Assembly: GCA_007375725.1 (NCBI GenBank)
Contig: VMEV01000010.1
Coordinates: forward strand, 1 to 49,164
DNA: 49,164 nucleotides
Source: Parcubacteria group bacterium Greene0416_36
GTDB taxonomy: Bacteria > Patescibacteriota > Patescibacteriia > VMEV01
Direction of reading: 5' to 3'
Shown: piece after piece, positions 8,567-26,248 of the stretch
Layout: each line of letters begins with the position of its first letter
How positions within the stretch are numbered: the first letter of the stretch is position 1
The notes under the pieces: generated by a model
The model's database searches: none
Seen by the model: only the letters and a program-made list of their open reading frames with translations
What the model was told of the DNA's origin: nothing
Translations under genes and position numbers: made by a program

Positions 8567-9682
8567 CTACTTCTGCACCACTATATAAATATGGTCATCC
8601 ATAGAGGGAACCGACCGCACCCAGAAAGGTGAAAATTCAACAGTGACTTCGCCAACCCCGGGTTTGGAGGCGAAATAATCAATCAATTCCTGGCGAGATT
8701 TGCCTTTGATCGCCTCTTTATCTACGAGAGCGCTGGTTCCTTTGAGGATGCCTTTGGCGGCCATGGAAATTTTGATTTGAGCAGATTTGGCCACGGGATC
8801 ATATTTCTCCAGCTTAAAAGTCAAACTGTCTGAATTGATACCAATGACTTCCATGTCAGTACCCGCCTGACGATACAATTCCTTTTTTGCTAATTCCGCA
8901 ATTTTAACAGGATTCGAAATCAAAACTTGCACCCTGACCTTCATGGCGACCTCAAAATTGGATTTATTATCTCCCGAAGCAGCTGATACGCTTTCGGATT
9001 CAACCAAAACCCAGGAAGCCTCCCGCAAAATGGACTCCCCTACTTCCAAAGCGGATCCGGCCTGCTGGAAAGCGAGATCCTCCAAATCTTTCTGCAAGGT
9101 CGCTTTGGCGGAGGCAATTTCCTGTTCGGTCACGGAATAGACGAATTTTTTACCTCCGGAAAAAGCCTCGGAGCTTTGGCCATAAATAATATTCTCAAAA
9201 GGCTTGCCTAAGCCAGGGACAGAAAACATCCCGGGGGATACATTCCCCTTCTCTCCCTTGTCATCCGCTACGACTTCGACCTCCACTGTGCCTCCCTTGG
9301 GAACTAGAATACGGCGGTTAGTTCTGAAAATAAGCCCGCCGGAAGAGGCAAATCGAGTTTTGGGAACAAGAATTTGATCAGACGAAGATTTGTTGTAAAC
9401 CGTGAGTGTGCCTGTGGCAAAATCATCCGCCCCCGACCCTCCAGGAGCAGACTCGAATTTCTTGGAATCCGACGAGTTGATTTCCAAAACCCGGCCCGCG
9501 ACTCCCTCTTTCTCGGACAAAGAAACCGTTTCAATAAAATCAACGGATAGTTCCGTTTCTTTGGGACGGATGGTGATGGAGGCGTAAGACACCGAAATAT
9601 ATAAAACCACAACAATCACCACCAGGGTCAACCCCGCGAAAGTCAGAGCCAGCTGGCGGTAAAGAGAGACGGAACGATCCAT
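8567..9682 (-). CDS. Membrane-anchored protein with baseplate J-like domain (type common in Patescibacteria)
   Basis: N-terminal TM helix; ATGTLTVYN...L.PKTRF...GLIFRT...VPKGG.VEVEVVAD..GEKGN signature. Confidence 0.7.
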   Translation of the reverse strand: MDRSVSLYRQLALTFAGLTLVVIVVVLYISVSYASITIRPKETELSVDFIETVSLSEKEGVAGRVLEINSSDSKKFESAPGGSGADDFATGTLTVYNKSSSDQILVPKTRFASSGGLIFRTNRRILVPKGGTVEVEVVADDKGEKGNVSPGMFSVPGLGKPFENIIYGQSSEAFSGGKKFVYSVTEQEIASAKATLQKDLEDLAFQQAGSALEVGESILREASWVLVESESVSAASGDNKSNFEVAMKVRVQVLISNPVKIAELAKKELYRQAGTDMEVIGINSDSLTFKLEKYDPVAKSAQIKISMAAKGILKGTSALVDKEAIKGKSRQELIDYFASKPGVGEVTVEFSPFWVRSVPSMDDHIYIVVQK

Positions 9683-10825: not shown

Positions 10826-12262
10826 TTACAATAATAATTTAGCGCGCAAATCTTCCATATCGCTCTTTCCATTGCCGTCCGTGTCTTTTTTGAGGGGAGA
10901 TGTCTTGGAAATATTCACCTCATCCCCGTCATCCAGCCCATCGCCATCAGTATCGTTTTTGACAGGATCCGTTCGCACCGAACACACTTCCTCGAAGTCC
11001 GTTAGGCCATCCTTGTCAAAATCCAATTGGACCATCATTTTTTTCTGAGCATCGTCCAGATCACCACAATTTTTAGTTGCGAATCCTCCTAAAACTTCTC
11101 CATAATTGCCGGCAAAAATAACCGGCAAGTTATAGGATCGGCCGAGAAAAGTCCCTTTGGAGCATTGACCGGAGGATAGAGACAGCTCAAAGAATGCGGT
11201 GGGACAGAGCCCAGCGTCCACATCTTCTTTATCGGTTTTCCCGTTTTGGTTCGTGTCGCGGTCCCCCGGGTTAGATCCGTAATCATTGACTTCAATACCA
11301 TCTGATAAACCGTCACCGTCTTTATCCGTACTCAGCGGATCGGAACCAATGCCCAAAAATTCATCTCCATCACCCAAACCGTCGCCATCGGTATCAAACT
11401 TAGTTGGGTCCGTATTGAACCATAATTCTTTCTCATCCGGAATCCCATCTTTGTCATAATCCAAAATAAATTCCGTATTGCTCAATTTGTACGTACAAAC
11501 CGTCTTGGCGGATTCCAATGGAATCTTGGCACAATCTTTGGCGTCTCGGGCCTCGCGATACTGGACCCAGGAACTATATTGATCAAGGACCGTCTTATTT
11601 TTAATCTGGCCCTCGGCTGGAATATCGGATCGAAGCGCATTGACTAAACATAATTTGGAATATTCGAGAGATGTAATGCCGCCACAGACCGAGACACTCT
11701 CTTTGCCAGCGGCGAGAACCGCGAGATTCAAAGCGAGCACGCGGTCCTTGCACTCTACGGCCTCATGGCTATCGTCCAACGAATCGCAAATCCCCGCCTG
11801 GGCCTTATCAACCGCCATAGAGGCAATGCACCGCTCGCGAAGAGATACCGTAGAAATCATGGCGCATTTTTTCGGATCACCGCTCTCTCTGCCTACACGA
11901 AACAGACAATCATTTCTATAACCATCTTCGTAAATACCCAAGCACTGGTCTATGCTTTTGGCATTACTGATCACTTCTGTATGAATAAATTCGTCGATAC
12001 ACCCCTCTTTGGCATCTCCTTCGGCCAAGCCAACACAGCCTTCTTTGGTTGGAATCAAAGGGGGACTCACCAACCTGCCGCCCTCTTCAAAGACCGTATT
12101 GCCGGGTTCATCCAGCAAACGGCGAAAAGCAGGATCTATGCCGCTGGAATCCGGAATCGTCACATCTCCCTCTCCCACGCTGGAAAAAAACCAGACCCCT
12201 CCGGCTAACAAAATAACCGCAGATAAAGCAATGATGGCCCATTGAAATTTAGATAGATTCAT
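10826..12262 (-). CDS. Membrane-anchored Cys-rich protein with Ca-binding DxDxDG (TSP3/binary-toxin-like) repeats
   Basis: N-terminal TM (from MNLSKF), C-x-x-I...C helical repeats, multiple DTDGDGL.DG.E....TDP repeats. Confidence 0.85.
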   Translation of the reverse strand: MNLSKFQWAIIALSAVILLAGGVWFFSSVGEGDVTIPDSSGIDPAFRRLLDEPGNTVFEEGGRLVSPPLIPTKEGCVGLAEGDAKEGCIDEFIHTEVISNAKSIDQCLGIYEDGYRNDCLFRVGRESGDPKKCAMISTVSLRERCIASMAVDKAQAGICDSLDDSHEAVECKDRVLALNLAVLAAGKESVSVCGGITSLEYSKLCLVNALRSDIPAEGQIKNKTVLDQYSSWVQYREARDAKDCAKIPLESAKTVCTYKLSNTEFILDYDKDGIPDEKELWFNTDPTKFDTDGDGLGDGDEFLGIGSDPLSTDKDGDGLSDGIEVNDYGSNPGDRDTNQNGKTDKEDVDAGLCPTAFFELSLSSGQCSKGTFLGRSYNLPVIFAGNYGEVLGGFATKNCGDLDDAQKKMMVQLDFDKDGLTDFEEVCSVRTDPVKNDTDGDGLDDGDEVNISKTSPLKKDTDGNGKSDMEDLRAKLLL

Positions 12263-12272
12263 AGGGTGTAAA

Positions 12273-15266
12273 TTACAAACAGTAACAAGCGGTTTCGAGC
12301 AAATCGTAGCCATGATAAGCACAAGTGTCCCCAGGATTTTCCTGATAGACGGGTGTCTTGCCTCGGGCATTGTCCAGATTGGCAAATCCGGAACAGGTCG
12401 ACACGCCGGTTACGCCATAAGGTTTGCATAAACCGCAAACATTGCTATTGACATCATTAGGCATTGGAGAATAGATGCTTCCTGCGGTTCTCCAATACGA
12501 ATAAGGATCATTAGCCCGGCAATAGTACTCATATTTATCATAGCCGGTAGAGTAATGGTTGGAATAGCTAGGCTGAATACGATCACCCGTATAATAATCC
12601 ATTCCAAAAAAACTCTTACAATTAGTACTTGCTTGGTTGGCGGACAAATTCATTGAGATAGTCGCTATCCCATTATTATTGCAACCACCAGGAGTTGAGA
12701 AGGCATCATCACGAACATATACACAGGCATTGGTCTTAGGGTTAGTAAATCCAACTCCCACGCAGACCCGATTCGTTTTACCGCAAATATCATCGCATCG
12801 AAATCCCTTCTTAAGCGCCGGAAGGCCTGGACTGAAAGCCACCGGTCCGCTGATGGGAACCAAATCCTCTACTCCCGCGCGCACAATCACAAAAGGCTTG
12901 TCTCCAATGAGGCCATCAGCGAATTCAGCCTTTTGATTGATTTCTTTGGATGCGGGATCGGTGGGTGCGGCACAACAATAGTCATGTATGGCTTTATCAA
13001 AAACGTCTGCGCAAACAAGTTTATTGTTCTGGCAGAGGAAAACTCCTTTTTGGCATTCATCGGGCTCGGTAATTCCAATACCTCCCCCACCGACTCGGAT
13101 TTTATCAACATAACAACCTACTCCCAAAGATTCGCCCTTAGGTCCTTTATTGTTGCAAGGCGAATCTTGTGGGAGGAGCTGACAATCTCTCTTGCAAAGA
13201 GTCAGCCTCGCCTTCCATGTGGCTTCATTGTAATTGGGAGGTTTGGACTCTAGAGGATCGCATTGTTCTATACCGGTCACTCGGCCGTCGCCGCAGGTAT
13301 CCGCGTCACATACATCGCCCAGAGGCGCCCAGCCGAATTCTTTCTCTAGTTGGGCGTCAGTATTAGTCTGAAGCGCATCCGAAATAAAGGGACAAAGGTC
13401 CGCGGCTCCGGAGAAACGGATAGAACAGTCTAGGCTCCCTGTATTAACCGTACATTTTCCATTCTCCTTGGCCGGACAAGCACAGACACCATCACCATCG
13501 ATATCATTGTCCGGATCATAGAAACAGCAGTCGCAGACATCGCCTACTCCGTCGGCATCACGGTCTGATTGATCCGTATTGGAAGAAAGAACGCAATTAT
13601 CCTTGGCTCCGGATTTTTCGGGACTTGAAAAACGGGGCCCCGCACAAACGCCATCGCCATCGGCATCATTAGCAGGATCATCAGGACACCAGTCGCAGAT
13701 ATCACCGTAGGCATCTCCGTCCACATTTAGTTGATCTTCGTTGGCATCGTCCACGCAATTATCAGCAGTGTCAATAACCGTATCCTCATCTTTATCCGAC
13801 AAACAGCCCTCCGCAGCGGAGATAAAAAAACGATTACAAATCCACTGGTCGCAATTATCCTGACATTCGGCATTGGAGGGAGTATTGTCTCTAAAATCAC
13901 AGACTTCAAAGCCCTCTTTCTCTCCATTGCCGCACGTGCCAATATCTCCGGAACACGCGTCGCCCAAAAGAGGCCGGCCAGACTCGATTTCCTGCCGCTC
14001 ATCTGTATTTCTCTGATCAGGATTGGGGGCTAGCGGACAATTATCTTCCCCGCCGCGCTTGGTGCCTCCGGATTCGACGCCGCGGAATACGCCGCCGATG
14101 CAGAGGCCGTCGCGGTCGCGGTCATTTTCAGGGTCTAAGGGGCATTCGTCACAGCCGTCTCCCACGCCGTCACGGTCGCGATCACACTGAGCATTGGTTC
14201 GGCGTTCTGGATCGCCCGACTGAGGCTGATAACAAATTCCGGGACGATTGCGGAGCTGGAAGCAGGTCTCGCCAGGGGCGAGCTGATCCACGGTAACAAA
14301 GGCAAATTTCTGATCCTCGGAGCACGCGATATCGCCGAAGCGGTCGCCGGAGGGACAAATATCTAGAGAATTGGGAATACCGTCGCGATCATTGTCGGTC
14401 GTATCCGCGGTCTTGAAGAAAAAACAGCCGGCCGAATCCAGCGGATTATCCACTACACCCTGCCAAGAACCCTCCCCTTTATATTCAAAATTGGCATACA
14501 GCTCGTAGCTGTCGCCATTTTCCATGGAACGATAGCCGTATACCTGGGCTCCGGTGGGACAAAAAAATTGTTTAGAGCGTTCATTCCAGCAAGTCACGGG
14601 ATCCACGTCCTCAGCGCGGCATCCGAAAAATTTATTCTCCGGATCAATGGGAATATCTTTTCCCAGCTCACGGCCCAAGGTCTCCTGCCAGGAAGGCCAG
14701 ACGGAAAAACTCCAGCCCGTCTGGTAACTGCCGGCTCGAAGATCAGGATACACTTTTTTGCCTTTCTTATAATCTTCCAAAATGCGGCGGAGATCATTGA
14801 TTTCCATCACGCGCCGAAGATCTTCCTGAATGCTTTTTTTCACCAGGCCCTCAGGATCAATTTCTTCCCCAATATTAGAATTAAAACGCCAAGTGCGAAT
14901 GAGCTGGCCTAAAATTTCGAGCACTTCCTGCTGGGCTCCTTCATTGAAAGAAATCAAATAAATATTGGAATAAAGCTTATCCCCCACTTTGTTCACAGCC
15001 GCCACATAAATCGTGCGGCCATCCCGGATAGCCGGATAGCCGTCCACCTCCAGCGCTTCCGGTTCCCCTGGATTAGGCACATTCTCCAAATACCATTCCA
15101 AAGGCGATAATATTCCATTGATATAAGTATGCGGATACTGCGCCAAATCCCCGGCATTCTGAATCACACGCACGCCGATCACATTTTGAATGGCAGATGC
15201 CTTGTCAGGTAAAGACAGCTCAAAGATAATAAAAAAAGATAAAATTAAGAGAAGCCGACGGAGCAT
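12273..15266 (-). CDS. Large secreted Cys-rich surface protein with thrombospondin type 3 repeats and a pilin-like segment
   Basis: Signal peptide; DNCP..PNPDQ.N.D.DG.GD.CD repeats; CGNG..E..E.CD repeats; D.RR......L...LE.Y......YP segment. Confidence 0.85.
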   Translation of the reverse strand: MLRRLLLILSFFIIFELSLPDKASAIQNVIGVRVIQNAGDLAQYPHTYINGILSPLEWYLENVPNPGEPEALEVDGYPAIRDGRTIYVAAVNKVGDKLYSNIYLISFNEGAQQEVLEILGQLIRTWRFNSNIGEEIDPEGLVKKSIQEDLRRVMEINDLRRILEDYKKGKKVYPDLRAGSYQTGWSFSVWPSWQETLGRELGKDIPIDPENKFFGCRAEDVDPVTCWNERSKQFFCPTGAQVYGYRSMENGDSYELYANFEYKGEGSWQGVVDNPLDSAGCFFFKTADTTDNDRDGIPNSLDICPSGDRFGDIACSEDQKFAFVTVDQLAPGETCFQLRNRPGICYQPQSGDPERRTNAQCDRDRDGVGDGCDECPLDPENDRDRDGLCIGGVFRGVESGGTKRGGEDNCPLAPNPDQRNTDERQEIESGRPLLGDACSGDIGTCGNGEKEGFEVCDFRDNTPSNAECQDNCDQWICNRFFISAAEGCLSDKDEDTVIDTADNCVDDANEDQLNVDGDAYGDICDWCPDDPANDADGDGVCAGPRFSSPEKSGAKDNCVLSSNTDQSDRDADGVGDVCDCCFYDPDNDIDGDGVCACPAKENGKCTVNTGSLDCSIRFSGAADLCPFISDALQTNTDAQLEKEFGWAPLGDVCDADTCGDGRVTGIEQCDPLESKPPNYNEATWKARLTLCKRDCQLLPQDSPCNNKGPKGESLGVGCYVDKIRVGGGGIGITEPDECQKGVFLCQNNKLVCADVFDKAIHDYCCAAPTDPASKEINQKAEFADGLIGDKPFVIVRAGVEDLVPISGPVAFSPGLPALKKGFRCDDICGKTNRVCVGVGFTNPKTNACVYVRDDAFSTPGGCNNNGIATISMNLSANQASTNCKSFFGMDYYTGDRIQPSYSNHYSTGYDKYEYYCRANDPYSYWRTAGSIYSPMPNDVNSNVCGLCKPYGVTGVSTCSGFANLDNARGKTPVYQENPGDTCAYHGYDLLETACYCL

Positions 15267-16401: not shown

Positions 16402-16782
16402 CTACCCTCTCATGGACACAGCTTCCCGATATTCGCTAGGGACTGCCATCTTCTCCCCTTTCACTTTTTTGGGAATATCGACGATTTTGATCGTCTTATC
16501 TAGGGCATGCAGGTATTTCATGAAAGTGCTGAGGCGAAAATCCACACGACCATTCTCAATACGAGACAAAAAACTTTTCTTAAATCCAGCTTTTTCTGCA
16601 AAGTCTGATTGAGTCATACCAGAATTTTCTCTTATCTCTAACATGTCTGAAATATACGAATGAATTAAACCTAATTTTTCAACATCTCTTTCCATTTTCA
16701 ACCTTCCTTTTGGATCATTAGCATATACTTCAGCCACATAAGATTCAAAAGAGGTATCTTCATTTTTATTATAGTTATGCAT
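16402..16782 (-). CDS. XRE-family HTH antitoxin (HigA-like)
   Basis: IRENSGMTQSDFAEKAGFKKSFLSRIENG HTH; downstream of a RelE/Gp49-like gene. Confidence 0.8.
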   Translation of the reverse strand: MHNYNKNEDTSFESYVAEVYANDPKGRLKMERDVEKLGLIHSYISDMLEIRENSGMTQSDFAEKAGFKKSFLSRIENGRVDFRLSTFMKYLHALDKTIKIVDIPKKVKGEKMAVPSEYREAVSMRG

Positions 16783-16789
16783 ATTTTTT

Positions 16790-17047
16790 TTATTCTATTT
16801 TAAGATTTTTTATAAAATCCATGTAGTAACCTTCAGCGAGTTCAATTTCCTGAAGTGGAATCTTATTCGATTTTTTTGCAAAAGCATGAAGCAATATAAT
16901 CTGCCTTGGATGATACAATATATAAAAAATTCTATAATTTATTCCATGGATCTCATCTCTTAGTGCCCAAACTTTAACAGGTATCTGGCCATTTGTTTTC
17001 TTATAAAAACAAAGACGCCAAGAATCTTCTAAAGGAATCATACACAT
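16790..17047 (-). CDS. RelE/ParE-superfamily (Gp49/HigB-like) toxin, apparently internally deleted
   Basis: FY...NG..PV and YRIFY......IILLHAFAKKSNKIP..EIELA motifs present; only 85 aa. Confidence 0.65.
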   Translation of the reverse strand: MCMIPLEDSWRLCFYKKTNGQIPVKVWALRDEIHGINYRIFYILYHPRQIILLHAFAKKSNKIPLQEIELAEGYYMDFIKNLKIE

Positions 17048-17149: not shown

Positions 17150-17713
17150 TTATTTCTCCTCCTGCTCACGTCCGACGTATTCCCGATTCTCGGTATTGAT
17201 GATCACGACTTCGCCTTCTTTGATGAAGAGCGGCACATTAATGGTGGCTCCGGTTTCGAGCTCGGCCTGCTTCATGACGGCTCCGGCGCTGTCTCCTTTG
17301 ACCCCGGGAGCGGTATTGACCACTTTGAGCGATACTTTCTTGGGAAGAGAAATGGTCACCAAATCATCCCCCAAAAAGAGTCCGTCCACCTTGGCTTCGG
17401 CCACGAGAAACTGGCCGTCTTCGCCTACCGCTTCGGTGCTAACCTGAAACTGCTCAAAATTGTCGTCCATGAAATAATAATTCGTGGCGTCTTTGTAAGT
17501 GAATTGCATGGCACGGCGAGTCACATCCGCCTCCTGTACGACTTCGTCCGATCGGAAGGTAACTTCGAGCGTCTTGCCATTTTTGACATTGCGCATCTTG
17601 ATGCGGCACATCATGCGGCGCTGAGCCATTTTGGAACGGTTCACCTCGGAAACGATCCAAGGATCATTCTCGTACATCATGGCCATTCCTTTGTGAAAAT
17701 CTCCGGCAGTCAT
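17150..17713 (-). CDS. efp: Translation elongation factor P
   Basis: YFMD.NFEQ, TAPGVKGDSA...K.AELETG..I.VPLFI.EG...I.T....Y..R. Confidence 0.95.
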   Translation of the reverse strand: MTAGDFHKGMAMMYENDPWIVSEVNRSKMAQRRMMCRIKMRNVKNGKTLEVTFRSDEVVQEADVTRRAMQFTYKDATNYYFMDDNFEQFQVSTEAVGEDGQFLVAEAKVDGLFLGDDLVTISLPKKVSLKVVNTAPGVKGDSAGAVMKQAELETGATINVPLFIKEGEVVIINTENREYVGREQEEK

Positions 17714-17842
17714 AAATTAGGCTATTAGGCATTAGCTTCTTAGCTTTTTAGAAGACAAAGTAACTAATCCGAAATGGATATAAAAAATAAAAATCTACTT
17801 ATAAACCTATATAATTAAGACCAAATTAGCCTTTTTGGGAGG

Positions 17843-17881
17843 AAAAAGCAAATCCTCGAGAGGAAGTTTCCAATCGAGGAT
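17843..17881 (-). terminator. Terminator closing array 1
   Basis: ATCCTCGA...TCGAGGAT stem followed by TTGCTTTTT on the minus strand. Confidence 0.6.
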
Positions 17882-17888
17882 ATATTTC

Positions 17889-18865
17889 GCCAAATAGATT
17901 TGGCATAAACAAAAATTCGAATTAAAGCGCAAAATATTAGTAAACAAGAAAGAAATTTGTTATAAAACTTCGCGAGAAAATTCTCGCCTCAAAACTAATT
18001 CAACGCATTATAATCTGCAGAAATTCGAAATATAGTGAGGGATAGTACGTCGATACATTAAAGAGTACTGCCTATTCGAGACCTAAAAAAAAGTCTCCAG
18101 TAACTTAAAAGGCTACAATTAAATCTACGCTACTGGACCGTAGTCCGGTAGGGATATCATCATCCGTCCTTTATAAAAGGACCAGAACCATAATCTAATA
18201 AAAAACAAGACGTTCAACATAAATCCGTAGAAAACATGCCGAGCTTCGAAAAGCTCCTAGGCATTAAAACAGGGTGAAACACGGCAAAGGGACCTACAGA
18301 ACACTGATCCAAAATCCCACAACTTTCATGTCTATTATGACCAGACACCTTAAACGAACAATAATGTGCGGCAACACAATCCGAACTACGACACTTAACT
18401 TGGATATCCGAGCAAAAATGCTCCTGAAAAGTAGAGAAATCTGAAACAGTGAACAGGACCCTAGGGGACCAAAATACACTACACATCCGTCCGAAGAATT
18501 CGGACCAATAATAAACCGCAGACTGCAGGAAACAAATATAGGACATCTCGCAGGACATTGATTTCGCCCTTGATAAAAGGGCCAGAAGAACAATTTATCT
18601 TACTTTAAGATAAGATAATTTAATAAATTACAAGGCAAATAAATACATACCGAGCCAATGAAGGCTCCTTGGCACTACAATAAACTAAAGTAAAACAGAC
18701 CATAGTAATCTAAAGGACGCCACTCCATCCGCGAGCAAAGACTCGCCAAAAATCTAAATGACCGCAAGCTAAACCAAGGGAAATAAAACCAATAAGCCCA
18801 AAGGCAAACAATCCGAGAACGAAAAGCTCTCCTATGCAATATTCTTCCTAAACAAACAGAAAGGC
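17889..18865 (-). ncRNA. Putative guide-RNA array 1: 12 hairpins and 11 complete pentamer-periodic tracts
   Basis: Hairpins start at 17889, 17972, 18078, 18166, 18241, 18328, 18410, 18489, 18566, 18652, 18731 and 18815. After each of the first 11, the + strand has a purine every 5 nt for 10-16 steps, starting exactly 5 nt from the stem. No credible ORF. Confidence 0.85.
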
Positions 18866-18890
18866 CTTTTCAAAGAACAGCAACCCAATA

Positions 18891-18919
18891 AATCTAGTCT
18901 AATAGCCAAAGAATGTCAA
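18891..18919 (-). promoter_or_regulatory. sigma70 promoter for array 1
   Basis: Minus strand TTGACA-17 nt-TAGATT, followed by boxA-like TGTTCTTTGAA (18869-18879). Confidence 0.75.
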
Positions 18920-18930
18920 TCCTCCCAACG

Positions 18931-18970
18931 AAAAAACAGCTTATTTTGTTCAATAAGCTGTTTTCTGTTT
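18931..18970 (-). terminator. Intrinsic terminator after the helicase gene
   Basis: aaaacagcttatt-ttgttc-aataagctgtttt. Confidence 0.7.
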
Positions 18971-18996
18971 CTTCTAAAAAACAAAAAGTAATATAG

Positions 18997-21030
18997 TTAT
19001 TTCTTCAAAAACGCACGGGCATCCAGACAACAATCTGCAAAGGTTTTGCCAGATATATAAGAGGTTCTTAGCTTTTCAGGGAGGGCGTAATAGACAAGCC
19101 CCTTAAATCTCTGATCATAACAGATCGTAACGGATTTGATTTTCCCGTCGCGTTCCGTACGGCCGCGGGCTTGCTTGATACGGATCTTGACCAGCCATTG
19201 ATGGATAGCGAAAGCGCCGTTTTTGCCGAACTTGCGATTCTCGAACTTCGACTCGGGAGAATTCGGATCAGGGTATCCAGGACGAAGGGTGATCACTACT
19301 TGAGCCAGACCATCCGGCAAGTCAATCCCTTCGGAAAAATTCTGCTCCGTACCGAGTAAAACCATGCCTTTGCCACCGCGAAACAATTCCACAGCTTCTT
19401 TGGGAGTTTTCGGCATAGTACCCAGCATCGCATCCGATCTCGGACTATTCGAACTGCGACCTCGGGAATAAGTGATGACATCGAGATTTTCTTTGTCCGG
19501 AGAGGAATAGAATAAGAACTTATCCAACTCTTGATGCGATCCAACCAGAACTAAAACACGAATCCCTTCGGCGTTAAAAAGTTTGCATTCCTTAACAATA
19601 CTTTCCAGGCTCTTGGCAGGTTCTCTATCCGAACGCACACTGTAAGCCAGACTCGGAGTGTCGCTCGGCATATAAATACGGGTGTTCTCAGCCGGGAAAC
19701 CGGATTCGAGAAAAAGATACTGAGGAAAATCAATGCCGGAAATATACCCAAAAACAGTACGGTCGCCAATGGTGGCGGACATCGCCAAAGTTCGGGACAA
19801 AAGCACTTTCTTACGAATCAGAGGCCTCACATGATGGGACTGGATGGTAAGGCGATTGATGACTTTTGGCCCCCTTCCTCCGTATTCTTCTTCTGGAATG
19901 GGTTCAGACACAAAATAACTGAATACATAGTTGAGTGCCATGTGCTTGATTTCATCATTTTCTTCCTTGGGAATAGCATAACGAAGGGACTGGATGTACC
20001 TCCAAAGATTGAAAAGAAGATTCTGCACCTCATTGAGAGCTTCGCGCCCTCCTTCCGCTTGGCTCGCCATTTTCTCCAATTCATTTTTTTTGGATTCCAA
20101 AGGAGAAGTGTCAATGGCTTCCAAGGCTTTGATGAGTTTTTTGATTTCATCATCTTCCAAGACGATTTTGGTGAAAGGAGGCTTATTCCTAGATACGATT
20201 TTCTTGAACACAACGAGAAATTTCTTGAGAGAGACGGACACACTTTCGTCCACTTTCTCCACGACCTCAATCGCGCGTTCTAAATGCCAGTCAGTAATAT
20301 CGTAAGAGAGGACATTGCGCACCAGTGGCGTGATATTGTGAACTTCATCCAGGACCACCGCGTCATGATCTTCCCAAACCCCTTTCTCGCTTTTAAAAAG
20401 CCTCATGATCAAATAAAAGGCATACGTGGTCACAACAATTCCCTCGTACTGCTTAGCCGCATATTTATGAGCATAATACGGACAGGGAACCGCCCCTTCT
20501 TCAAGAGTTTTTCCAGTCGCCTGATCCACCCGATGACCGCAGCTTCGCAGTATCGCACAAGGAATTTCATTGGCTTTCCACGCCGGCTTTTGATCCGGAT
20601 AATAAAGACAATCATGAGACTCTCTGCCTTCGAGCACAAATACCATATCCGAAAAACGCTTAGCGATTTGTTTGGCTTGAGCCAAATTGGGCACCACGTA
20701 GAAAATTCGTTTATAGCCATGCAATTTCCGAAGAACTGAAAGCCACACGATACCAATGAGAGACTTGCCGACGCCAGTTTCTCCCTCCAATAAAACTTGA
20801 TCATGGCCTTGGGATAGAAAACGAAAAGCCTTGAGCTGAGCCTCTCTCATTCGGAAATAACGCGGAATATGCCAAGGAAAACACTCCACATAAGGAGCCA
20901 ATGCCGGATTGGCAGCGACTTCCACAGCAAGCATTTCTCTTGTATACCCTTCCTGAGGCGATTCTTGTACGATCGGAATAGGGGAAGGTGTATCTGCAAT
21001 TGAACCCAATAATAATTGATCCGCCATCAT
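18997..21030 (-). CDS. DinG/Rad3-family SF2 helicase with probable FeS-binding cysteines
   Basis: GETGVGKS (motif I), DEVH (II), SAT (III), EGIDLP (V), QARGRTER (VI); GRESHDC...PC....C...PCPYY cysteine cluster. Confidence 0.88.
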   Translation of the reverse strand: MMADQLLLGSIADTPSPIPIVQESPQEGYTREMLAVEVAANPALAPYVECFPWHIPRYFRMREAQLKAFRFLSQGHDQVLLEGETGVGKSLIGIVWLSVLRKLHGYKRIFYVVPNLAQAKQIAKRFSDMVFVLEGRESHDCLYYPDQKPAWKANEIPCAILRSCGHRVDQATGKTLEEGAVPCPYYAHKYAAKQYEGIVVTTYAFYLIMRLFKSEKGVWEDHDAVVLDEVHNITPLVRNVLSYDITDWHLERAIEVVEKVDESVSVSLKKFLVVFKKIVSRNKPPFTKIVLEDDEIKKLIKALEAIDTSPLESKKNELEKMASQAEGGREALNEVQNLLFNLWRYIQSLRYAIPKEENDEIKHMALNYVFSYFVSEPIPEEEYGGRGPKVINRLTIQSHHVRPLIRKKVLLSRTLAMSATIGDRTVFGYISGIDFPQYLFLESGFPAENTRIYMPSDTPSLAYSVRSDREPAKSLESIVKECKLFNAEGIRVLVLVGSHQELDKFLFYSSPDKENLDVITYSRGRSSNSPRSDAMLGTMPKTPKEAVELFRGGKGMVLLGTEQNFSEGIDLPDGLAQVVITLRPGYPDPNSPESKFENRKFGKNGAFAIHQWLVKIRIKQARGRTERDGKIKSVTICYDQRFKGLVYYALPEKLRTSYISGKTFADCCLDARAFLKK

Positions 21031-21123
21031 TTTTTCCTTTCAGGAAAATTAATAAGAAACAAACTAAAACACGAACAGGTTCATTCAATCAGAAAACCCA
21101 TAATTTGTAAAGACTCGTCCAAT

Positions 21124-21153
21124 AAAAAAACACTCTCTTGGCGAGAATGTTTT
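21124..21153 (-). terminator. Possible terminator/attenuator between the RAMP-like gene and the helicase
   Basis: Minus strand aaaacattctc-gccaa-gagagtgtttt, then ttt. Confidence 0.5.
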
Positions 21154-21186
21154 AATTGTCCAATATTTCACTATAAAATCTATCGA

Positions 21187-22053
21187 TTATGTTTTTCCGG
21201 AATTCGCAGGAAGAGAAACTCCTTCCTTCACTTCTTCCTCTTCCATTTTATACGGAAGCGAAATGTATTCATAATCGTCTTCTTTCAAGAGTTCTTTCTT
21301 TACTTCTTGCACACGAACAATCTTGAAGGTACCGTTGGTGCCGTTACAGTTTACACGATAGGACCCGATTCCATAGATCACACCGCCGTTTTTGAGGCAT
21401 TGAAGCGCGATATCGATAGTCTTGGGACCCAAACGATCTTTGACTTCGCAGAGGAATTTGATCTGGGTGCCTTCGGGGTATTCGGGACGCACAATGCGGC
21501 AAGTGATTTCAGCTTTTGGAATAACACCGCGGTCTTCATTGACACGGAATTTTTCCTTTCCGACAATGCACATTTCCTGATCCACAAATTCGGCAGTATA
21601 CCCCAAAATCCTGAAAAAAGAACCGATAATGCTTCCGCTGGTCTTGGTGGAAACTTTCTTGCGATTGCCCAAATCCACATCACATCCCCCGCAACGAGTA
21701 GCCGCATAAATCCACTTGGCAGGCACGCCCGATTTACCAGAATCAGGATCGATCCACACTTTTTTCCTGGCAATTTCTATGCCCGGAAGCCCTTTTACCT
21801 TAACTTTCTTATCAGCAGAATCGATTTCCAATAATTTCTCTGGAGTCATCGGATCGCCCAAAAGTGGAGAGGTCGTTTGGATCGTGATTTCCAAAATGGT
21901 GATATATTTGGTTCCATACGAAACAGGAGAGGAACCTTTCTTTTCCTTTTTCTTCCCCTTTTCAGCGCTCGCCGCACTATCAGCAACGGTTTCAACCACG
22001 GGAATCGGTTCAGTCGCGACAGCAGAGGAACTATCATTTTTTTGTCTAGCCAT
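21187..22053 (-). CDS. Stand-alone RAMP/Cas7-like protein (288 aa)
   Basis: AAGGAG RBS before ATG 22053. LEITIQTTSPLL first strand, G.P...I.AA helix, RPEY...T.I.F and a C-terminal glycine-rich loop GG..YGIGSYR....G..GTF, which is the RAMP/Cas7 layout. Judged by eye, no HMM run. Confidence 0.75.
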   Translation of the reverse strand: MARQKNDSSSAVATEPIPVVETVADSAASAEKGKKKEKKGSSPVSYGTKYITILEITIQTTSPLLGDPMTPEKLLEIDSADKKVKVKGLPGIEIARKKVWIDPDSGKSGVPAKWIYAATRCGGCDVDLGNRKKVSTKTSGSIIGSFFRILGYTAEFVDQEMCIVGKEKFRVNEDRGVIPKAEITCRIVRPEYPEGTQIKFLCEVKDRLGPKTIDIALQCLKNGGVIYGIGSYRVNCNGTNGTFKIVRVQEVKKELLKEDDYEYISLPYKMEEEEVKEGVSLPANSGKT

Positions 22054-22112
22054 GCTAGATCTCCTTAAAAACAAAATACTCAATCTACACAAAACACTAA
22101 AAAATAACAATC

Positions 22113-22353
22113 GAGGTTCAAAGACCCCCTTTACAATACACTACTTAAAAATAAACAGATGAAAAATGAAGGAACATACTCTATTTCGAGGTTAAAACCT
22201 CCAAAACATTAACTTACGAAACAACAAATTAATTAACACCGTTTTAAAGAAATCAATAAAACAGTATATACCGCCCGCATAATGCAGGCCTAAACCTCAC
22301 AGGGATTGACGCAAATCCGCGCAATTATACTCAGAGGTAATCTGCAGGAAAAT
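22113..22353 (-). ncRNA. Putative guide-RNA array 2 (3 units) in the leader of the RAMP-like gene
   Basis: Hairpins 22113-22128, 22188-22201 and 22273-22289; purine every 5 nt on + for 11, 13 and 12 steps from 22133, 22206 and 22294; G.U pairs form only on the minus strand. Confidence 0.82.
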
Positions 22354-22499
22354 TGTCGTTCTAATTGTAAAGAACGTGTTCATCCAAGCATAACCCCAAA
22401 TACTTGTCAAATCTTCCAGGATATGCTTCAATGATGAGTCCAATGTAATTTCAGACCGAGAGACTATAAAACAAATTCCAATCAAAACAGGAGAAACAA

Positions 22500-23489
22500 A
22501 TGAACGATATCGCAACAAGACCAGTACGCGAAAAGAGTCCATGGACCGTGGCCTTTGAAAACAGAAAACATCTCGGAGATTTTTCTACCCCAGCTTGGAA
22601 ACAGGCATATGGTATTATCAATAAAGATTTTTCCAGATTCGAAATACTCGACTGCCCAAATAAAGCGGGACTTACCATTGACTGCGGGCACGCCAGAATC
22701 AAAAACCAAGCAATCGGGATAGAAGGAAACACCTTAATGGTGCACATCTCCGATGTCGCAAGCTTCATTCCCAAAGACAGCCCTCTGGATGTCGAAATGC
22801 AGAGCCGAGTCATATCCATACAAAATTCCAGGATTCTCCCCTTCCGGTTAGCAAAGGAACAGTTCTCGCTGGAACAGAATCAGAAAACCAAATGCCTCAC
22901 GTTCCAATGGGCATTCGATGAATACGGAGAAATCAATCAGTTGCGACGAAAAATATACCATTCCAATGTCGAGGTCCCGATATCGATTTCATTTGAACAA
23001 GCCGATGGCATCCTCGAGGATCCTCTACACAAATACCACCCAGTCATACGAAGCCTCAAATCGATCGGAGAACATCTGGTCGACCTGCGCATCCGCAATG
23101 AGTGGACATTCACGCGCGAACGAAAAAAAACATGGGTGGAAAAAAACGGACAATGGATTTTCACAGACTATATCGACGGGTCTCAATCCCCCAATGACTG
23201 GATCATGCAGGAGGTCATGATTCTAGTGAATTACACCGTGGCATCCCTGTTAGACCAATTGGGTATCCATGGATGCTACACCGATCCCTATCGCTCTCCC
23301 AATGGTATCCGCTATTGCCAAGCCACAGCCCCCATGCATAATTTGGAAGATCTTGTAAATCAAAGGATTCTATTGGCATTATTATCACTCGGGAAAATTC
23401 CTATACCCTATACCCTGGAAGAAATGGAGGAAATCAAAACCAAAACCAATCGCATGTACTTCGCCCGATCTTCGGGAGGGAAAAAATAA
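22500..23489 (+). CDS. RNB (RNase II/R catalytic)-domain protein, predicted inactive
   Basis: TID...LMVHISDVASFIP.DSPLD.E..R..S, FSL, EVMILVN and ATAPM..LEDLVNQRIL match RNB motifs; the catalytic DxDD is replaced by IKNQ. Confidence 0.75.
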   Translation: MNDIATRPVREKSPWTVAFENRKHLGDFSTPAWKQAYGIINKDFSRFEILDCPNKAGLTIDCGHARIKNQAIGIEGNTLMVHISDVASFIPKDSPLDVEMQSRVISIQNSRILPFRLAKEQFSLEQNQKTKCLTFQWAFDEYGEINQLRRKIYHSNVEVPISISFEQADGILEDPLHKYHPVIRSLKSIGEHLVDLRIRNEWTFTRERKKTWVEKNGQWIFTDYIDGSQSPNDWIMQEVMILVNYTVASLLDQLGIHGCYTDPYRSPNGIRYCQATAPMHNLEDLVNQRILLALLSLGKIPIPYTLEEMEEIKTKTNRMYFARSSGGKK

Positions 23490-23500
23490 AAAACAAACAA

Positions 23501-23661
23501 TTCTGTCCTGTCTATTTGCCTAGATCAAAACAAACTAAATTTGAATTTAGGTCCTTTATAATAAAGGACGAAAAAATTTCACATTATTCACGTCAAACAA
23601 ACCTAATTCACGTGGACTTAATTTCATTCCTGTTCGTCTCTGAGCCTCTCTAATCGAGGCT
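23501..23661 (+). ncRNA. Putative guide-RNA array 3 (2 units), opposite orientation, downstream of RNB-like gene 1
   Basis: Pyrimidine every 5 nt at 23501-23546 (10 steps) and 23588-23638 (11 steps); each tract ends 5 nt before a hairpin (23551-23569, 23643-23661) that is followed by GAAA/GGAAAT. Confidence 0.78.
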
Positions 23662-23668
23662 GGAAATC

Positions 23669-23717
23669 AAAAAGTAGCTTCTTCTCAAATTTCAGAAAAA
23701 GCTACTTTTATTTTTTT
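23669..23717. terminator. Bidirectional terminator between convergent arrays 3 and 4
   Basis: AAAAGTAGCTT...AAGCTACTTTTATTTTTTT. Confidence 0.7.
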
Positions 23718-23718
23718 C

Positions 23719-23957
23719 AGCCCCCAGAGAGGGCTCTTGAATATACTATAATTTAGAGTGCCTGAAAGAACAGAACAATAAGGCACGGAAAAGCAAACCG
23801 CGTTTTTAGAAAAACGCCAACACTTAACTCTTGATCGAAATAAAATAATACACAGGAATAAACTATAATAGAACAGCATCCGAGTATGGTGAGTACTCCT
23901 AGAATTGAATGGAATTTACAACAAAGGACAATGATGAGCACCAATCTACAGTAAAAG
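23719..23957 (-). ncRNA. Putative guide-RNA array 4 (3 units)
   Basis: Hairpins 23719-23735, 23800-23817 and 23882-23898; purine every 5 nt from 23740 (12 steps), 23822 (10 of 11) and 23903 (11). Confidence 0.82.
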
Positions 23958-23966
23958 TACCCAATG

Positions 23967-23995
23967 AAACTAGCAATTGGATAGAGGGATGTCAA
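23967..23995 (-). promoter_or_regulatory. sigma70 promoter for array 4
   Basis: Minus strand TTGACA-17 nt-TAGTTT with TG extended -10. Confidence 0.7.
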
Positions 23996-24081
23996 GAGCA
24001 AGCCCTTGTACAATCGATCCGGATATGCTTCAATACTCTCGATTTTCAGTATATTTATCTCTCATTTTAAGGAGTCCAAAA

Positions 24082-25029
24082 ATGGCTAAAAATGGCCAAA
24101 AAAAGAAGATCAACTGGAAAGAGTATTTTGAAAAAAGACAGAATTCGTATCTGTCGGATGCGTCACGCGAAGAATTCGTCAAACATCTGCATTCTGCAGC
24201 ATCCGAAAATAAAAAAATAGAAAGGACAATAATCACCAGCATCACATTCGACAAGGAAATCTATATGAATGAGGCGATACTGATCGAATATCCCTATATT
24301 CATATCAGCGTCCCGGATATAGTCAGTCTCGTTACTCCCAAGAAGACACTGGATAAAGAATTGTACGAGAGAGCCTCTTCCGTTAAAGATAACCCTCTTT
24401 TTCCGGAAGATCTCATCAACCTTCGATCCTCTTTCAAGCATGATGAACTTCGAAATGCTTATACTCTCTCTTGGAAATTTGGCGATGCCGGAGAAATTCA
24501 AGAACCCAAATTTTATCCCAGCCAAATTCTATCAATTGGATATATCCAACCTTCGCCAAGCGCTGAAGCTAAAGACTATCCCAAGAACTTGGAACAAATC
24601 GGACTAAAACTCATTGATCGCAGAATCAAAACGTTTCAGCTCTTCAAGAAAGAGGAAAAATTGCCAGTTGCAGAGAAAGAAGGCTATAAAATTTTCGAAT
24701 GCTACCTCAGAAACTCCACCATGAGCTGGGTTGAAAAAGAACTTGCCATCTTTGCCAATATCCAAGCTGGGGAACTATTTCATCAGAAAGGCATAGCCGC
24801 ATGTTTTGCCTCTCCCTATGGTTCTCCCTGTGAAACCCACTATGCTCCCATCATGCGGCCGCTGGATTCCTATCGAGATCTCATCAATCAGCGAGCACTC
24901 TTGTCAATTTTCACCGGACTCAAAAAGGATTTCCCCTATACTCCCGCGCAGATAGCGAAAATAAATGAAAGGATTCAAACACGGTACAGCGCGTGGAAAA
25001 ATCTAGAAAAGAAAAATTCTAATCTATGA
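24082..25029 (+). CDS. Second RNB-like protein (paralogue), predicted inactive
   Basis: AAGGAG RBS before ATG 24082; IHISVPDI...LD.E..ERASSV, ELAIFAN and HYAPIMRPLDSYRDLINQRAL; catalytic aspartate motif lost. Confidence 0.7.
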   Translation: MAKNGQKKKINWKEYFEKRQNSYLSDASREEFVKHLHSAASENKKIERTIITSITFDKEIYMNEAILIEYPYIHISVPDIVSLVTPKKTLDKELYERASSVKDNPLFPEDLINLRSSFKHDELRNAYTLSWKFGDAGEIQEPKFYPSQILSIGYIQPSPSAEAKDYPKNLEQIGLKLIDRRIKTFQLFKKEEKLPVAEKEGYKIFECYLRNSTMSWVEKELAIFANIQAGELFHQKGIAACFASPYGSPCETHYAPIMRPLDSYRDLINQRALLSIFTGLKKDFPYTPAQIAKINERIQTRYSAWKNLEKKNSNL

Positions 25030-25056
25030 AATTGATCGGTTTCCAAAAAAACCATC

Positions 25057-25100
25057 AAAAAAGTAGCCGATATTTAACCATCAGGCTACTTTTATTTTTT
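25057..25100. terminator. Bidirectional terminator between RNB-like gene 2 and array 5
   Basis: AAAAGTAGCC...GGCTACTTTTATTTTTT, nearly the same as 23669-23717. Confidence 0.7.
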
Positions 25101-25102
25101 CC

Positions 25103-25482
25103 GTGGATTGAATCCACCTGCACACAAATTGATTATGGCTTGAGTCAAGGCAATCCGAAATAATATAGAGAAATCTACGATAATTCAAAAAACAGAACAG
25201 CAATCCGCGCTCTTTTCTAAAAGCGCCTTAAATTTACATTAAATCAATGTAAGTTACACCGGTCGAGACTAAAGAGGTACAATTCGCCTGATAAGTCAGG
25301 CCAGCGATAAAAACCAACTCAAACTACATAAATCTGATATACGTAAATATGACGAAACCATTCGCGTCTGAAAAGACGCCTAGACAAGAAAGCAACGAAA
25401 TCAACACTAAGCCAAATAACAGAACAATAATCCGCGCCCCATTCAATGAGCGCCTACAATAAAAACAAGATTAAATAGAAAA
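25103..25482 (-). ncRNA. Putative guide-RNA array 5 (5 hairpins; 4 complete tracts plus a short leader tract)
   Basis: Hairpins 25103-25117, 25207-25226, 25286-25301, 25364-25379 and 25434-25453; purine every 5 nt from 25122 (17 steps), 25231 (11), 25306 (11), 25384 (10) and 25458 (5). Confidence 0.85.
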
Positions 25483-25505
25483 CACAACAAATTAAGAACT
25501 CATCA

Positions 25506-25534
25506 AACTTATACAATCAATCAATGATTGTCAA
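25506..25534 (-). promoter_or_regulatory. sigma70 promoter for array 5
   Basis: Minus strand TTGACA-17 nt-TAAGTT, then boxA-like GTTCTTAA. Confidence 0.7.
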
Positions 25535-25539
25535 GGGTG

Positions 25540-25571
25540 TGTCGCAAAAACATAATAATGTCTTTGCGACA
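25540..25571. promoter_or_regulatory. Palindromic operator-like site TGTCGCAA-N16-TTGCGACA (second copy at 34375-34406)
   Basis: Identical half-sites and spacing at two loci, each between back-to-back TTGACA boxes. Confidence 0.65.
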
Positions 25572-25577
25572 AAATTC

Positions 25578-25606
25578 TTGACAATTGATTTTAGAAAATT
25601 TATAAT
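25578..25606 (+). promoter_or_regulatory. Consensus sigma70 promoter of the mazEF-like operon
   Basis: TTGACA-17 nt-TATAAT. Confidence 0.85.
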
Positions 25607-25629
25607 ACACACAAATAATGTGTAAAGAT

Positions 25630-25890
25630 ATGTCAACTATCACACTCTCACCCAATACGAAAGAACGCATCAATGTCATGCTTCCACGACGGATCATCCG
25701 TTCGATCGGCCGTCTATCGAAAAATAGAAAACGAAGCCAATTCATCGCAACCGCGGTCGATTTTTATATTGATTCAATGCAAAACAAAAAACTCAAATCT
25801 CTTCTACAAGAAGGAGCGCAAAAAAGATCCGAAAGAGATCAGATAATCACCGAAGAAATGGGCCTCATCGATACGGTTTATGAAAAATAA
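25630..25890 (+). CDS. Ribbon-helix-helix antitoxin (MazE/EndoAI-like)
   Basis: RINVMLP...I......RSQFI..AV pattern; overlaps the start of the toxin gene. Confidence 0.8.
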   Translation: MSTITLSPNTKERINVMLPRRIIRSIGRLSKNRKRSQFIATAVDFYIDSMQNKKLKSLLQEGAQKRSERDQIITEEMGLIDTVYEK

Positions 25891-26248
25891 GACCCTTTTC
25901 CCAAAGCGAGGCGAAATATATCTCGTCAATTTTGATCCTACAGTAGGAGCGGAGATGAAAAAAACACGGCCGGCTCTCATTTTACAAAATGATATTGCAA
26001 ACAAATATAGCGCCATAACCATCATCGCAGCAATCACCTCTCAATTCGAACTGCCTCTCTACCCTACTGAAGTTTTATTGGACTCTTCCGCATGCCGGCT
26101 AGACAAAGAATCAGTCATAGTACTCAATCAAATCCGATCCATCGACAAAACACGCCTGATCAAAAAAATCGGAGAAATTCCAGCGAAGTCATTACAGCAA
26201 ATAGAAATAGCACTAAAAATAAGCCTGGGTCTTATAAAGATAGAATAA
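25880..26248 (+). CDS. mazF: PemK/MazF-family toxin endoribonuclease
   Basis: KRGEIYLVNFDPTVGAE.KKTRPALILQND..N, QIRSIDK.RL. Confidence 0.93.
   Translation: MKNKTLFPKRGEIYLVNFDPTVGAEMKKTRPALILQNDIANKYSAITIIAAITSQFELPLYPTEVLLDSSACRLDKESVIVLNQIRSIDKTRLIKKIGEIPAKSLQQIEIALKISLGLIKIE

Follow-up and report, generated by a model that had tools for sequence, protein, structure and literature searches.

A probable helicase-associated VIPR system with U-rich pentamer arrays in a Parcubacteria chromosome

Described systems and the locus

The closest described systems to the locus examined here are VIPR (Viral Interference Programmable Repeat) systems, in which, by the text of two preprints, a minimal RAMP protein is accompanied by guide RNAs named vrRNAs that consist of 9-16 YNNGG repeats and a tail, in seven types (bioRxiv 10.64898/2026.04.26.720920, 10.64898/2026.04.26.720927). 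The same text gives the recognized site as gapped double-stranded DNA (dsDNA) with one base skipped, lists the repeat variants YNNNG and NNNNG, and has types III-V encoding nucleases or helicases (bioRxiv 10.64898/2026.04.26.720920, 10.64898/2026.04.26.720927). The text of another preprint places non-canonical arrays of GAC/NN, CAC/NN, WGT/NN, and TGH/NN beside a Vipr-like fold (bioRxiv 10.64898/2026.10.21.760802). Our locus lies between the genes efp and mazEF on contig VMEV01000010.1 of the assembly GCA_007375725.1, from Parcubacteria group bacterium Greene0416_36; the window is the whole stretch of 49,164 nucleotides (nt) of that contig that was analysed. We read the locus, with a probability of roughly 0.8, as a chromosomal helicase-associated VIPR system with about 22 vrRNA genes in 4-5 minus-strand arrays.

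What the locus shares with VIPR, as the preprints' text describes it, is a Vipr-family minimal RAMP with RRM core, G-loop, and thumb, the absence of a CRISPR array at the locus, and an accessory enzyme gene, here an adjacent vap-like gene for a DNA-acting helicase that is linked to Vipr in related genomes. It also shares long flanking intergenic pentamer tracts, upstream and downstream of the genes, in which 10-13 pentamers per unit follow in tandem, three bases of each being constrained and two free and near-uniform, and a structured 3′ part after the tract in the orientation we infer. The canonical GGY/NN (YNNGG) repeat is not found. In its place is W-K-U/NN with U at position 2; the roughly 22 units in 4-5 arrays carry a simple hairpin and a GRAW tail rather than a pseudoknot; and the locus is chromosomal, in a genome of about 1 Mb, with two dead RNB genes inside it. 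Because the defining features other than GGY are present, we file the locus as a VIPR member with a divergent repeat. The x-G-Y repeat of its relatives is close to WGT/NN and to the YNNNG variant, whereas the mostly-U position 2 of the window is not among the motifs given in the text on non-canonical arrays.

A preliminary description of this DNA, generated by a model, had named a VIPR family, which does exist in the 2026 preprints. It overrated the novelty of the locus, as the preprints already include VIPR types with a helicase and pentamers other than GGY. The locus is not a new class of system; what is unusual about it locally is a repeat rich in U and the presence of two dead RNB genes. 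Descriptions of VIPR date from 2026 only, and in the text of the preprints the types with a helicase are left uncharacterized; in the main text of the VIPR preprint the terms DinG and RNB do not occur and the helicase family is not named.

Type IV-A CRISPR-Cas has a similar pairing, of a Cas7-like filament (Csf2) with a DinG-family helicase (CasDinG). Here there is no CRISPR array, there are no Cas5/Cas6/Cas8-like genes, and the type IV-A set of Csf1/Csf3/Csf5 with Csf2 and Csf4 has no member among the open reading frames (ORFs) of the locus. Against a cut-off of 400 for the Csf4 equivalog the helicase reaches 21 bits, and it has a four-cysteine iron-sulfur (Fe-S) motif like that of XPD/DinG, while to our knowledge CasDinG is without an Fe-S cluster. 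By this comparison the locus would work like type IV-A, as a Cas7-like filament with a DinG motor, but it is not a type IV-A member.

The Vipr protein and its helicase partner

The vipr gene (21187-22053, minus strand) encodes a 288-amino acid (aa) protein that has no match in Pfam, NCBIfam, PHROG, or PADLOC, and for which a word-index homologue search returns the query alone. An exhaustive phmmer search of 1.8 billion representatives gives 79 proteins at E ≤ 1e-3, the query among them, and most have 190-290 aa; four long repetitive proteins were dropped and two translations from relatives added to give an alignment, A1, of 77 rows. The A1 profile has a single match in the PDB, which is the SUSP1 Vipr protein (36pp_D) with E = 6.9e-16, the next being at E ≥ 0.3, and the match runs from position 15 to 206 of the profile and from residue 2 to 192 of a chain of 202. 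An AlphaFold2 model built on A1 has a mean predicted local distance difference test (pLDDT) score of 83.4, above 90 in the core, with a Vipr core at about residues 49-256 and disordered N- and C-terminal extensions. Foldseek finds 129 matches to this model in the PDB at E ≤ 0.001, headed by chains of Csm3 and of the Cas7 of type VII (E 4.5e-8 to about 1e-6, probability 1.0), and among the viral models of BFVD three RAMP-like matches at E ≤ 0.001, one of them annotated as a siphovirus RAMP-superfamily protein. Profile and fold support the lone Cas7-like RAMP of the preliminary description. The likeness to the type III and type VII proteins is one of structure, at 9-15% identity, and the locus differs from those systems in its 5-nt rather than 6-nt step and in having no Cas10, Cas11, or Cas14 partners.

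The G-loop is recognizable as G228-I-G-S-Y-R-V (GIGSYR...GTNGTF). In the SUSP1 structure, by the text of the paper on it, D177 reads G1, R138 and W178 hold G2, and R179 with its neighbours forms the pyrimidine pocket; at the matching G-loop positions the window protein has S231, Y232, and R233. The kept R233 and the change of Asp to Ser fit a retained pyrimidine and a lost G1. The A1 family is tied to VIPR independently by one of its members, in the relative locus L029, which sits between canonical GGT/NN arrays with tails. Two Vipr paralogues stand in tandem in the relatives G378, G004, and G116.

The helicase gene (18997-21030, minus strand) encodes a DinG/XPD-type superfamily 2 protein of 677 aa with the Pfam domains Helicase_C_2, DEAD, and DEAD_2. 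It matches the PADLOC typeIV_DinG model at 6.2e-40 and stays below the cut-off of every NCBIfam equivalog. Its motifs are Walker A, DEAH, and the four-cysteine Fe-S type (C141, C158, C164, C183), and all of these except one of the cysteines are invariant in 8/8 homologues. The Vipr profile matches 13 of 401 genomes of the window's class, and a helicase homologue at 30-37% identity is near the Vipr match in 7 of the 8 loci examined around these matches, the exception being the GGT/NN locus.

To the helicase alignment, searched with one genome per species, there are 168 relatives, of which the best 80, making 79 loci, were kept. In 52 loci the helicase match reaches 30% identity or more, and 49 of these have a Vipr-profile ORF beside the helicase; the 52 include two partial matches at contig ends and at least six loci on the same contigs as loci examined earlier. 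In the three close loci with no Vipr ORF, either the contig is short or the helicase lies at its end. Beside the 27 distant homologues (loci L089-L115), which are at 21-28% identity over long matches and some higher over short segments, there is no Vipr-profile ORF at all. Because of this contrast of 49/52 with 0/27, the helicase is, judged by gene linkage, a dedicated partner of Vipr, which upholds the partnership that the preliminary description had proposed. The 52 close loci are mostly labelled Patescibacteria, with several differing labels. Against viral contigs the helicase alignment gave 26 pattern matches, with no relatives among them. The contigs of the distant helicases are mostly labelled archaea (DPANN).

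Pentamer arrays and the RNB genes among them

The genes of the locus leave four non-coding stretches (17714-18996, 22054-22499, 23490-24081, and 25030-25617), about 2.9 kb in total and about 41% A on the plus strand. A hairpin of one form recurs in them on the plus strand, with A-T-Y-C followed by a stem of 4-8 bp that starts with G and ends with C, and then a further C, in copies 75-106 nt apart. When the tracts are anchored at the end of the preceding (plus-strand) hairpin, period 5 is sharp over 12 pentamers, with a phase-by-base chi-square of 237 as compared to 12.1 ± 4.9 (maximum 36.8) in 2000 within-tract shuffles and 22 ± 11.5 (maximum 84) in a random-offset control. Anchoring at the following (plus-strand) hairpin gives little signal (chi-square 41.6), and unanchored autocorrelation and spectra show period 5 weakly except in the stretch IG1. 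With 240 positions per phase on the plus strand, phase 1 is A or C in 83% and phase 2 is A or T in 80%; phases 3 (A 76, C 56, G 54, T 54) and 4 (A 65, C 58, G 30, T 87) are near-uniform; and phase 5 is A in 174 of 240 (72.5%), against 110 ± 6.9 in shuffles. The 5-nt period in hairpin register, claimed by the preliminary description, is thereby confirmed. In minus-strand reading the pentamer becomes 5′-Y(U)-N-N-W-K-3′, which is W-K-U/NN in the notation of GGY/NN, and a unit is (U/Y-N-N-W-K)n followed by a 5-8-bp GC-rich hairpin in exact register and then GRAW. When the whole assembly is scanned on both strands for a G-stem hairpin with a fitting tract, 15 of 42 matches are at the locus, as are 9/9 of those scoring at least 25.

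The statistics rest on 20 hairpins, chosen from a hairpin listing by their flanks (YC before the stem-opening G, C after the stem-closing C). Two of these fit poorly, one at 18815-18831 that abuts a promoter and one at 23551-23569; three more hairpins lie in register (22113-22128, 22273-22289, and 23719-23735) and one at +1 (18329-18347). The total is 21-24 units of 10-13 pentamers each in the four intergenic regions, which is close to the 23 complete units (among 25 hairpins) counted before. All arrays are given on the minus strand. Array 1 (17839-18890) has 11-12 units, identified by hairpins and register, with hairpins at 17889-17904, 17972-17987, 18078-18097, 18166-18182, 18241-18256, (18329-18347), 18410-18423, 18489-18505, 18566-18582, 18652-18667, 18731-18746, and 18815-18831. 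Array 2 (22113-22410), upstream of vipr on the same strand, has 3 units with hairpins at 22113-22128, 22188-22201, and 22273-22289. Array 3a (23551-23661) is the one poorly fitting unit with hairpin 23551-23569 and a further hairpin at 23643-23661; array 3b (23719-23995) has 3 units with hairpins at 23719-23735, 23800-23817, and 23882-23898; and array 4 (25103-25534) has 5 units with hairpins at 25103-25117, 25207-25226, 25286-25301, 25364-25379, and 25434-25453. Nowhere in the locus is the local period-5 signal stronger than in the 23570-23650 part of array 3a (power 3.9), yet this part fits the M-W-N-N-A frame poorly. ATTCACGT stands in it twice, as an internal near-repeat, and the part may be a divergent unit or one in the opposite orientation.

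For comparison among relatives, a five-column motif was fitted to period-5 windows, first of 9 loci and then of 42. The canonical locus gives G 0.80, G 0.78, and Y 0.90, and the helicase-linked loci mostly x-G-Y/NN, with position-2 G at 0.45-0.88 and a pyrimidine at position 3 at 0.6-0.93. The W-K-U/NN of the window has G1 0.14, G2 0.19, position-2 U 0.63, and Y3 0.79, so that its position-2 U is the highest of the 42 loci (the next being 0.35 and 0.33) and its position-2 G the lowest. The degenerate motif of the preliminary description is in this way seen as U for G at position 2, an outlier. The loci strongest in G1 all carry the G-loop Asp, and mean G1 is 0.44 with that Asp (n = 12) and 0.28 without (n = 15), with overlapping ranges and related loci, which suggests covariation of the two as a trend only. 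In the relatives G378 (L026/L055) and G264 (L027/L057) there are several kilobases of vrRNA-like genes, each with a TTGAC promoter and a terminator hairpin.

Between arrays 2, 3, and 4 are two genes on the plus strand for RNB-domain proteins, protein 1 with 329 aa (22500-23489, Pfam RNB 2.3e-26) and protein 2 with 315 aa (24082-25029, Pfam RNB 6.7e-15). The start of the latter in the ORF list is TTG 23977, and an AAGGAG ribosome-binding site favors ATG 24082. The two are paralogues at 30% identity (E = 4e-33), each with an RNB domain above the Pfam cut-off and no other domain matched, and a structure search of an Atlas model finds RNB folds at a template modeling (TM) score of about 0.8. The catalytic residues of RNase II/R are a cluster of aspartates, D...DxDD, in a domain flanked by cold-shock (CSD) and S1 domains, and neither the cluster nor the flanking domains are found here. 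Because DLDDA of RNase R is replaced by IKNQA in protein 1 and YMNEA in protein 2, no exonuclease activity is expected of either. A word-index search with protein 1 returns the query alone, and RNB homologues are in 0 of 400 other genomes of the class (E ≤ 1e-5), 0 of 8 related loci, and 0 of 79 helicase loci. With homologues absent from those 8 and 79 related loci, the RNB genes do not belong to the conserved components of VIPR; they are probably a lineage-specific addition with a putative link to the system. Of the two dead RNB proteins put forward earlier, the loss of the catalytic cluster holds and the role as a conserved system part does not, and of the co-occurrences expected in the flanks of homologues, period-5 arrays and DinG are found and RNB is not. 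A third RNB-like paralogue, of 224 aa and 22% identity to protein 1, is on contig C19 (44383-45090); in locus L035 of that contig the RNB-like ORF (1483-2157, minus strand) adjoins a 310-aa ORF, with no pentamer units nearby.

Of the readings that compete with ours, the one with most left to it makes the inactive RNB proteins integral, binding or capping the 3′ hairpin-GRAW ends of vrRNAs or aiding maturation. The embedding of the genes between arrays, the retention of the full RNB fold with its RNA-binding channel while the catalytic Asp cluster is lost, and the want of any close relative found elsewhere speak for it; the zero counts in related loci, the paralogue on another contig with no arrays, and the strand, opposite to that of vipr, helicase, and arrays, speak against it, and we consider it unlikely. 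That a pocket re-tuned to W-K-U and two dead RNBs gripping the 3′ hairpin-GRAW ends together make a three-component VIPR effector is somewhat more doubtful still.

Strand, activity, and targets

Which strand is read decides what the hairpin is. Folding the 20 hairpins gives a summed −175 kcal/mol on the minus strand and −144 on the plus strand, with minus lower in 16 of 20, and several hairpins gain G·U pairs on the minus strand that are C·A mismatches on the plus strand. On the minus strand there is exactly one TTGACA per array region, at the upstream end, giving four (18914-18919, 22405-22410, 23990-23995, and 25529-25534); the one at 18914-18919 is also found by a promoter scan, as TTGACA-17-TAGATT with a 17-nt spacer (18891-18919), facing array 1. 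At their other ends the arrays are closed by bidirectional terminators. Relatives have, on the vipr strand, a TTGAC promoter, a Y-N-N-A-G pentamer tract, a GC hairpin, and a U-run, and 33 of 40 related loci carry their x-G-Y motif on that strand too. From these patterns the vrRNAs are more likely minus-strand RNAs in which the hairpin forms a 3′ tail; the best-kept base is then a pyrimidine, as the Y3 pocket of Vipr requires, and the register is then fixed at a 3′ hairpin, like the 3′ tail of SUSP1 vrRNAs.

The opposite orientation, in which the filament would be nucleated by a plus-strand hairpin at the 5′ end, as a handle, with an A-rich M-W-N-N-A tract 3′ of it, is improbable. The hairpin would set the register whichever strand is read, the bidirectional terminators after the helicase gene (18931-18966), in the array 3 region (23670-23709), and between RNB protein 2 and array 4 (25059-25093) would serve the plus strand as well, and hairpin 23882-23898 is more stable on that strand, as three others are marginally. 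It would nonetheless forgo the hairpin energies and the G·U pairs, turn the TTGACA sites the wrong way, make the conserved base a purine, which the Vipr pocket excludes, and reverse the order in relatives, where the tract is 5′ of the hairpin on the vipr strand, and in SUSP1, where, by the published text, the vrRNAs end in a 3′ tail.

With the minus strand taken as the guide strand, units are too close for one promoter each, so that a transcript would span several units, with cutting or termination at the hairpins. The vipr leader would then contain array 2, and array 1 would follow the helicase terminator. A terminator-like hairpin lies between vipr and the helicase gene (21127-21153, minus strand).

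By homology to the SUSP1 Vipr, one protomer would take up each pentamer, burying the three constrained bases and exposing the two free ones, and the 20-26 exposed bases of a guide would jointly read a gapped dsDNA site in a phage or mobile element. The Fe-S DinG/XPD-type helicase would then load on the opened target and block or strip it, a step suggested by the conserved gene linkage and the analogy to CasDinG. Each array would be read from its one TTGACA promoter at the upstream end. Targets were sought in the organism's own genome with 19 guides of 12 NN pairs each under skip rules 0-3. The best matches are at 17-21 of 24 positions under skip rules 0, 1, and 2 and at 16-19 of 24 under rule 3 with the own locus excluded, while guides with shuffled pair order reach 16-21 of 24.

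Several points count against a working VIPR system as described. The 288-aa sequence by itself has no significant PDB match (best E 0.8), so that the Vipr assignment is transitive, resting on the family profile and the fold. The position-2 G of the window is 0.19, as compared to 0.45-0.88 in most of 40 loci, and decay is possible. Relatives have a promoter for every unit, for which the unit spacing of 75-106 nt leaves too little room here; one hairpin, 23882-23898, is more stable on the plus strand; and the 20 hairpins behind the statistics were picked by eye from their flanks. The target search with the gapped code covered the own genome and not viral collections, and gave nothing above shuffled guides. 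RNA runs are not listed for the locus, and the runs that hold the stretch are 4 DNA runs of one groundwater study.

The low position-2 G and the want of per-unit promoters would suit a decaying relic, an inactive system whose arrays are drifting remnants of x-G-Y/NN vrRNAs, as would hairpins that are shorter than the terminator-type hairpins of the relatives. We hold this to be quite improbable, given the intact vipr and helicase frames with invariant catalytic motifs, the at least 21 units in exact hairpin register, the flat NN phases in an A/T-rich background, and a position 2 that is shifted to U and is not random. Regulation of host genes in place of attack on mobile elements is the least credible reading, since the chromosomal site between efp and mutS in a 1-Mb genome and the silencing of transcription reported in the text on characterized VIPR systems have against them own-genome sites no better than those of shuffled guides, two flanking toxin-antitoxin pairs as in defence islets, and types III and V described in the VIPR paper's text as having no self-targets.

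Setting and significance

The assembly has 1.03 Mb in 25 contigs with completeness rated at 100%. On one side the locus is bordered by efp (17150-17713, minus strand) and on the other by mazEF (25618-26248), after which comes mutS. Just upstream of efp are a Gp49-like (DUF891, HigB-type) toxin ORF and an HTH_3 antitoxin-like ORF (16402-17047, minus strand), so that two toxin-antitoxin pairs, Gp49/HTH_3 and mazEF, bracket the VIPR locus. The further upstream chromosomal setting includes rpoC, rpoB, a DHH phosphoesterase, and two large proteins with no Pfam match, of 371 and 997 aa (8567-9682 and 12273-15266, minus strand), which adjoin a TSP3-repeat protein (10826-12385) and may be surface proteins. 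Seven ORFs inside the array stretches have no Pfam match, and Rfam at gathering thresholds matches nothing in the whole window.

The preliminary description had also found no cas1 and no CRISPR array, which holds for the window, where no direct-repeat family of CRISPR type is detected, and is to be qualified for the assembly. The 2.6-kb contig C10 begins with a fragment of Cas1, whose 31.7 bits exceed the Pfam cut-off, followed by a CRISPR-like array of 3 repeat copies of 45 nt, their last bases differing, at a spacing of 71-73 nt (92-289 and 784-972, locus L036). The assembly may hold a CRISPR-Cas locus too, the binning of so short a contig being uncertain.

Across Patescibacteria, Vipr and this helicase form a tight pair, defined by the locus with its 49 relatives, and the guide genes are easily read. 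The locus is a natural test of how far the fixed trinucleotide can drift, as from G to U at its second position, without loss of the five-base code, and of what gapped RNA-guided binding of DNA gains from a DinG-type motor. If true, a re-tuned pocket with dead RNBs would make an effector of filament, Fe-S helicase, and dead exonuclease in an ultra-small genome.

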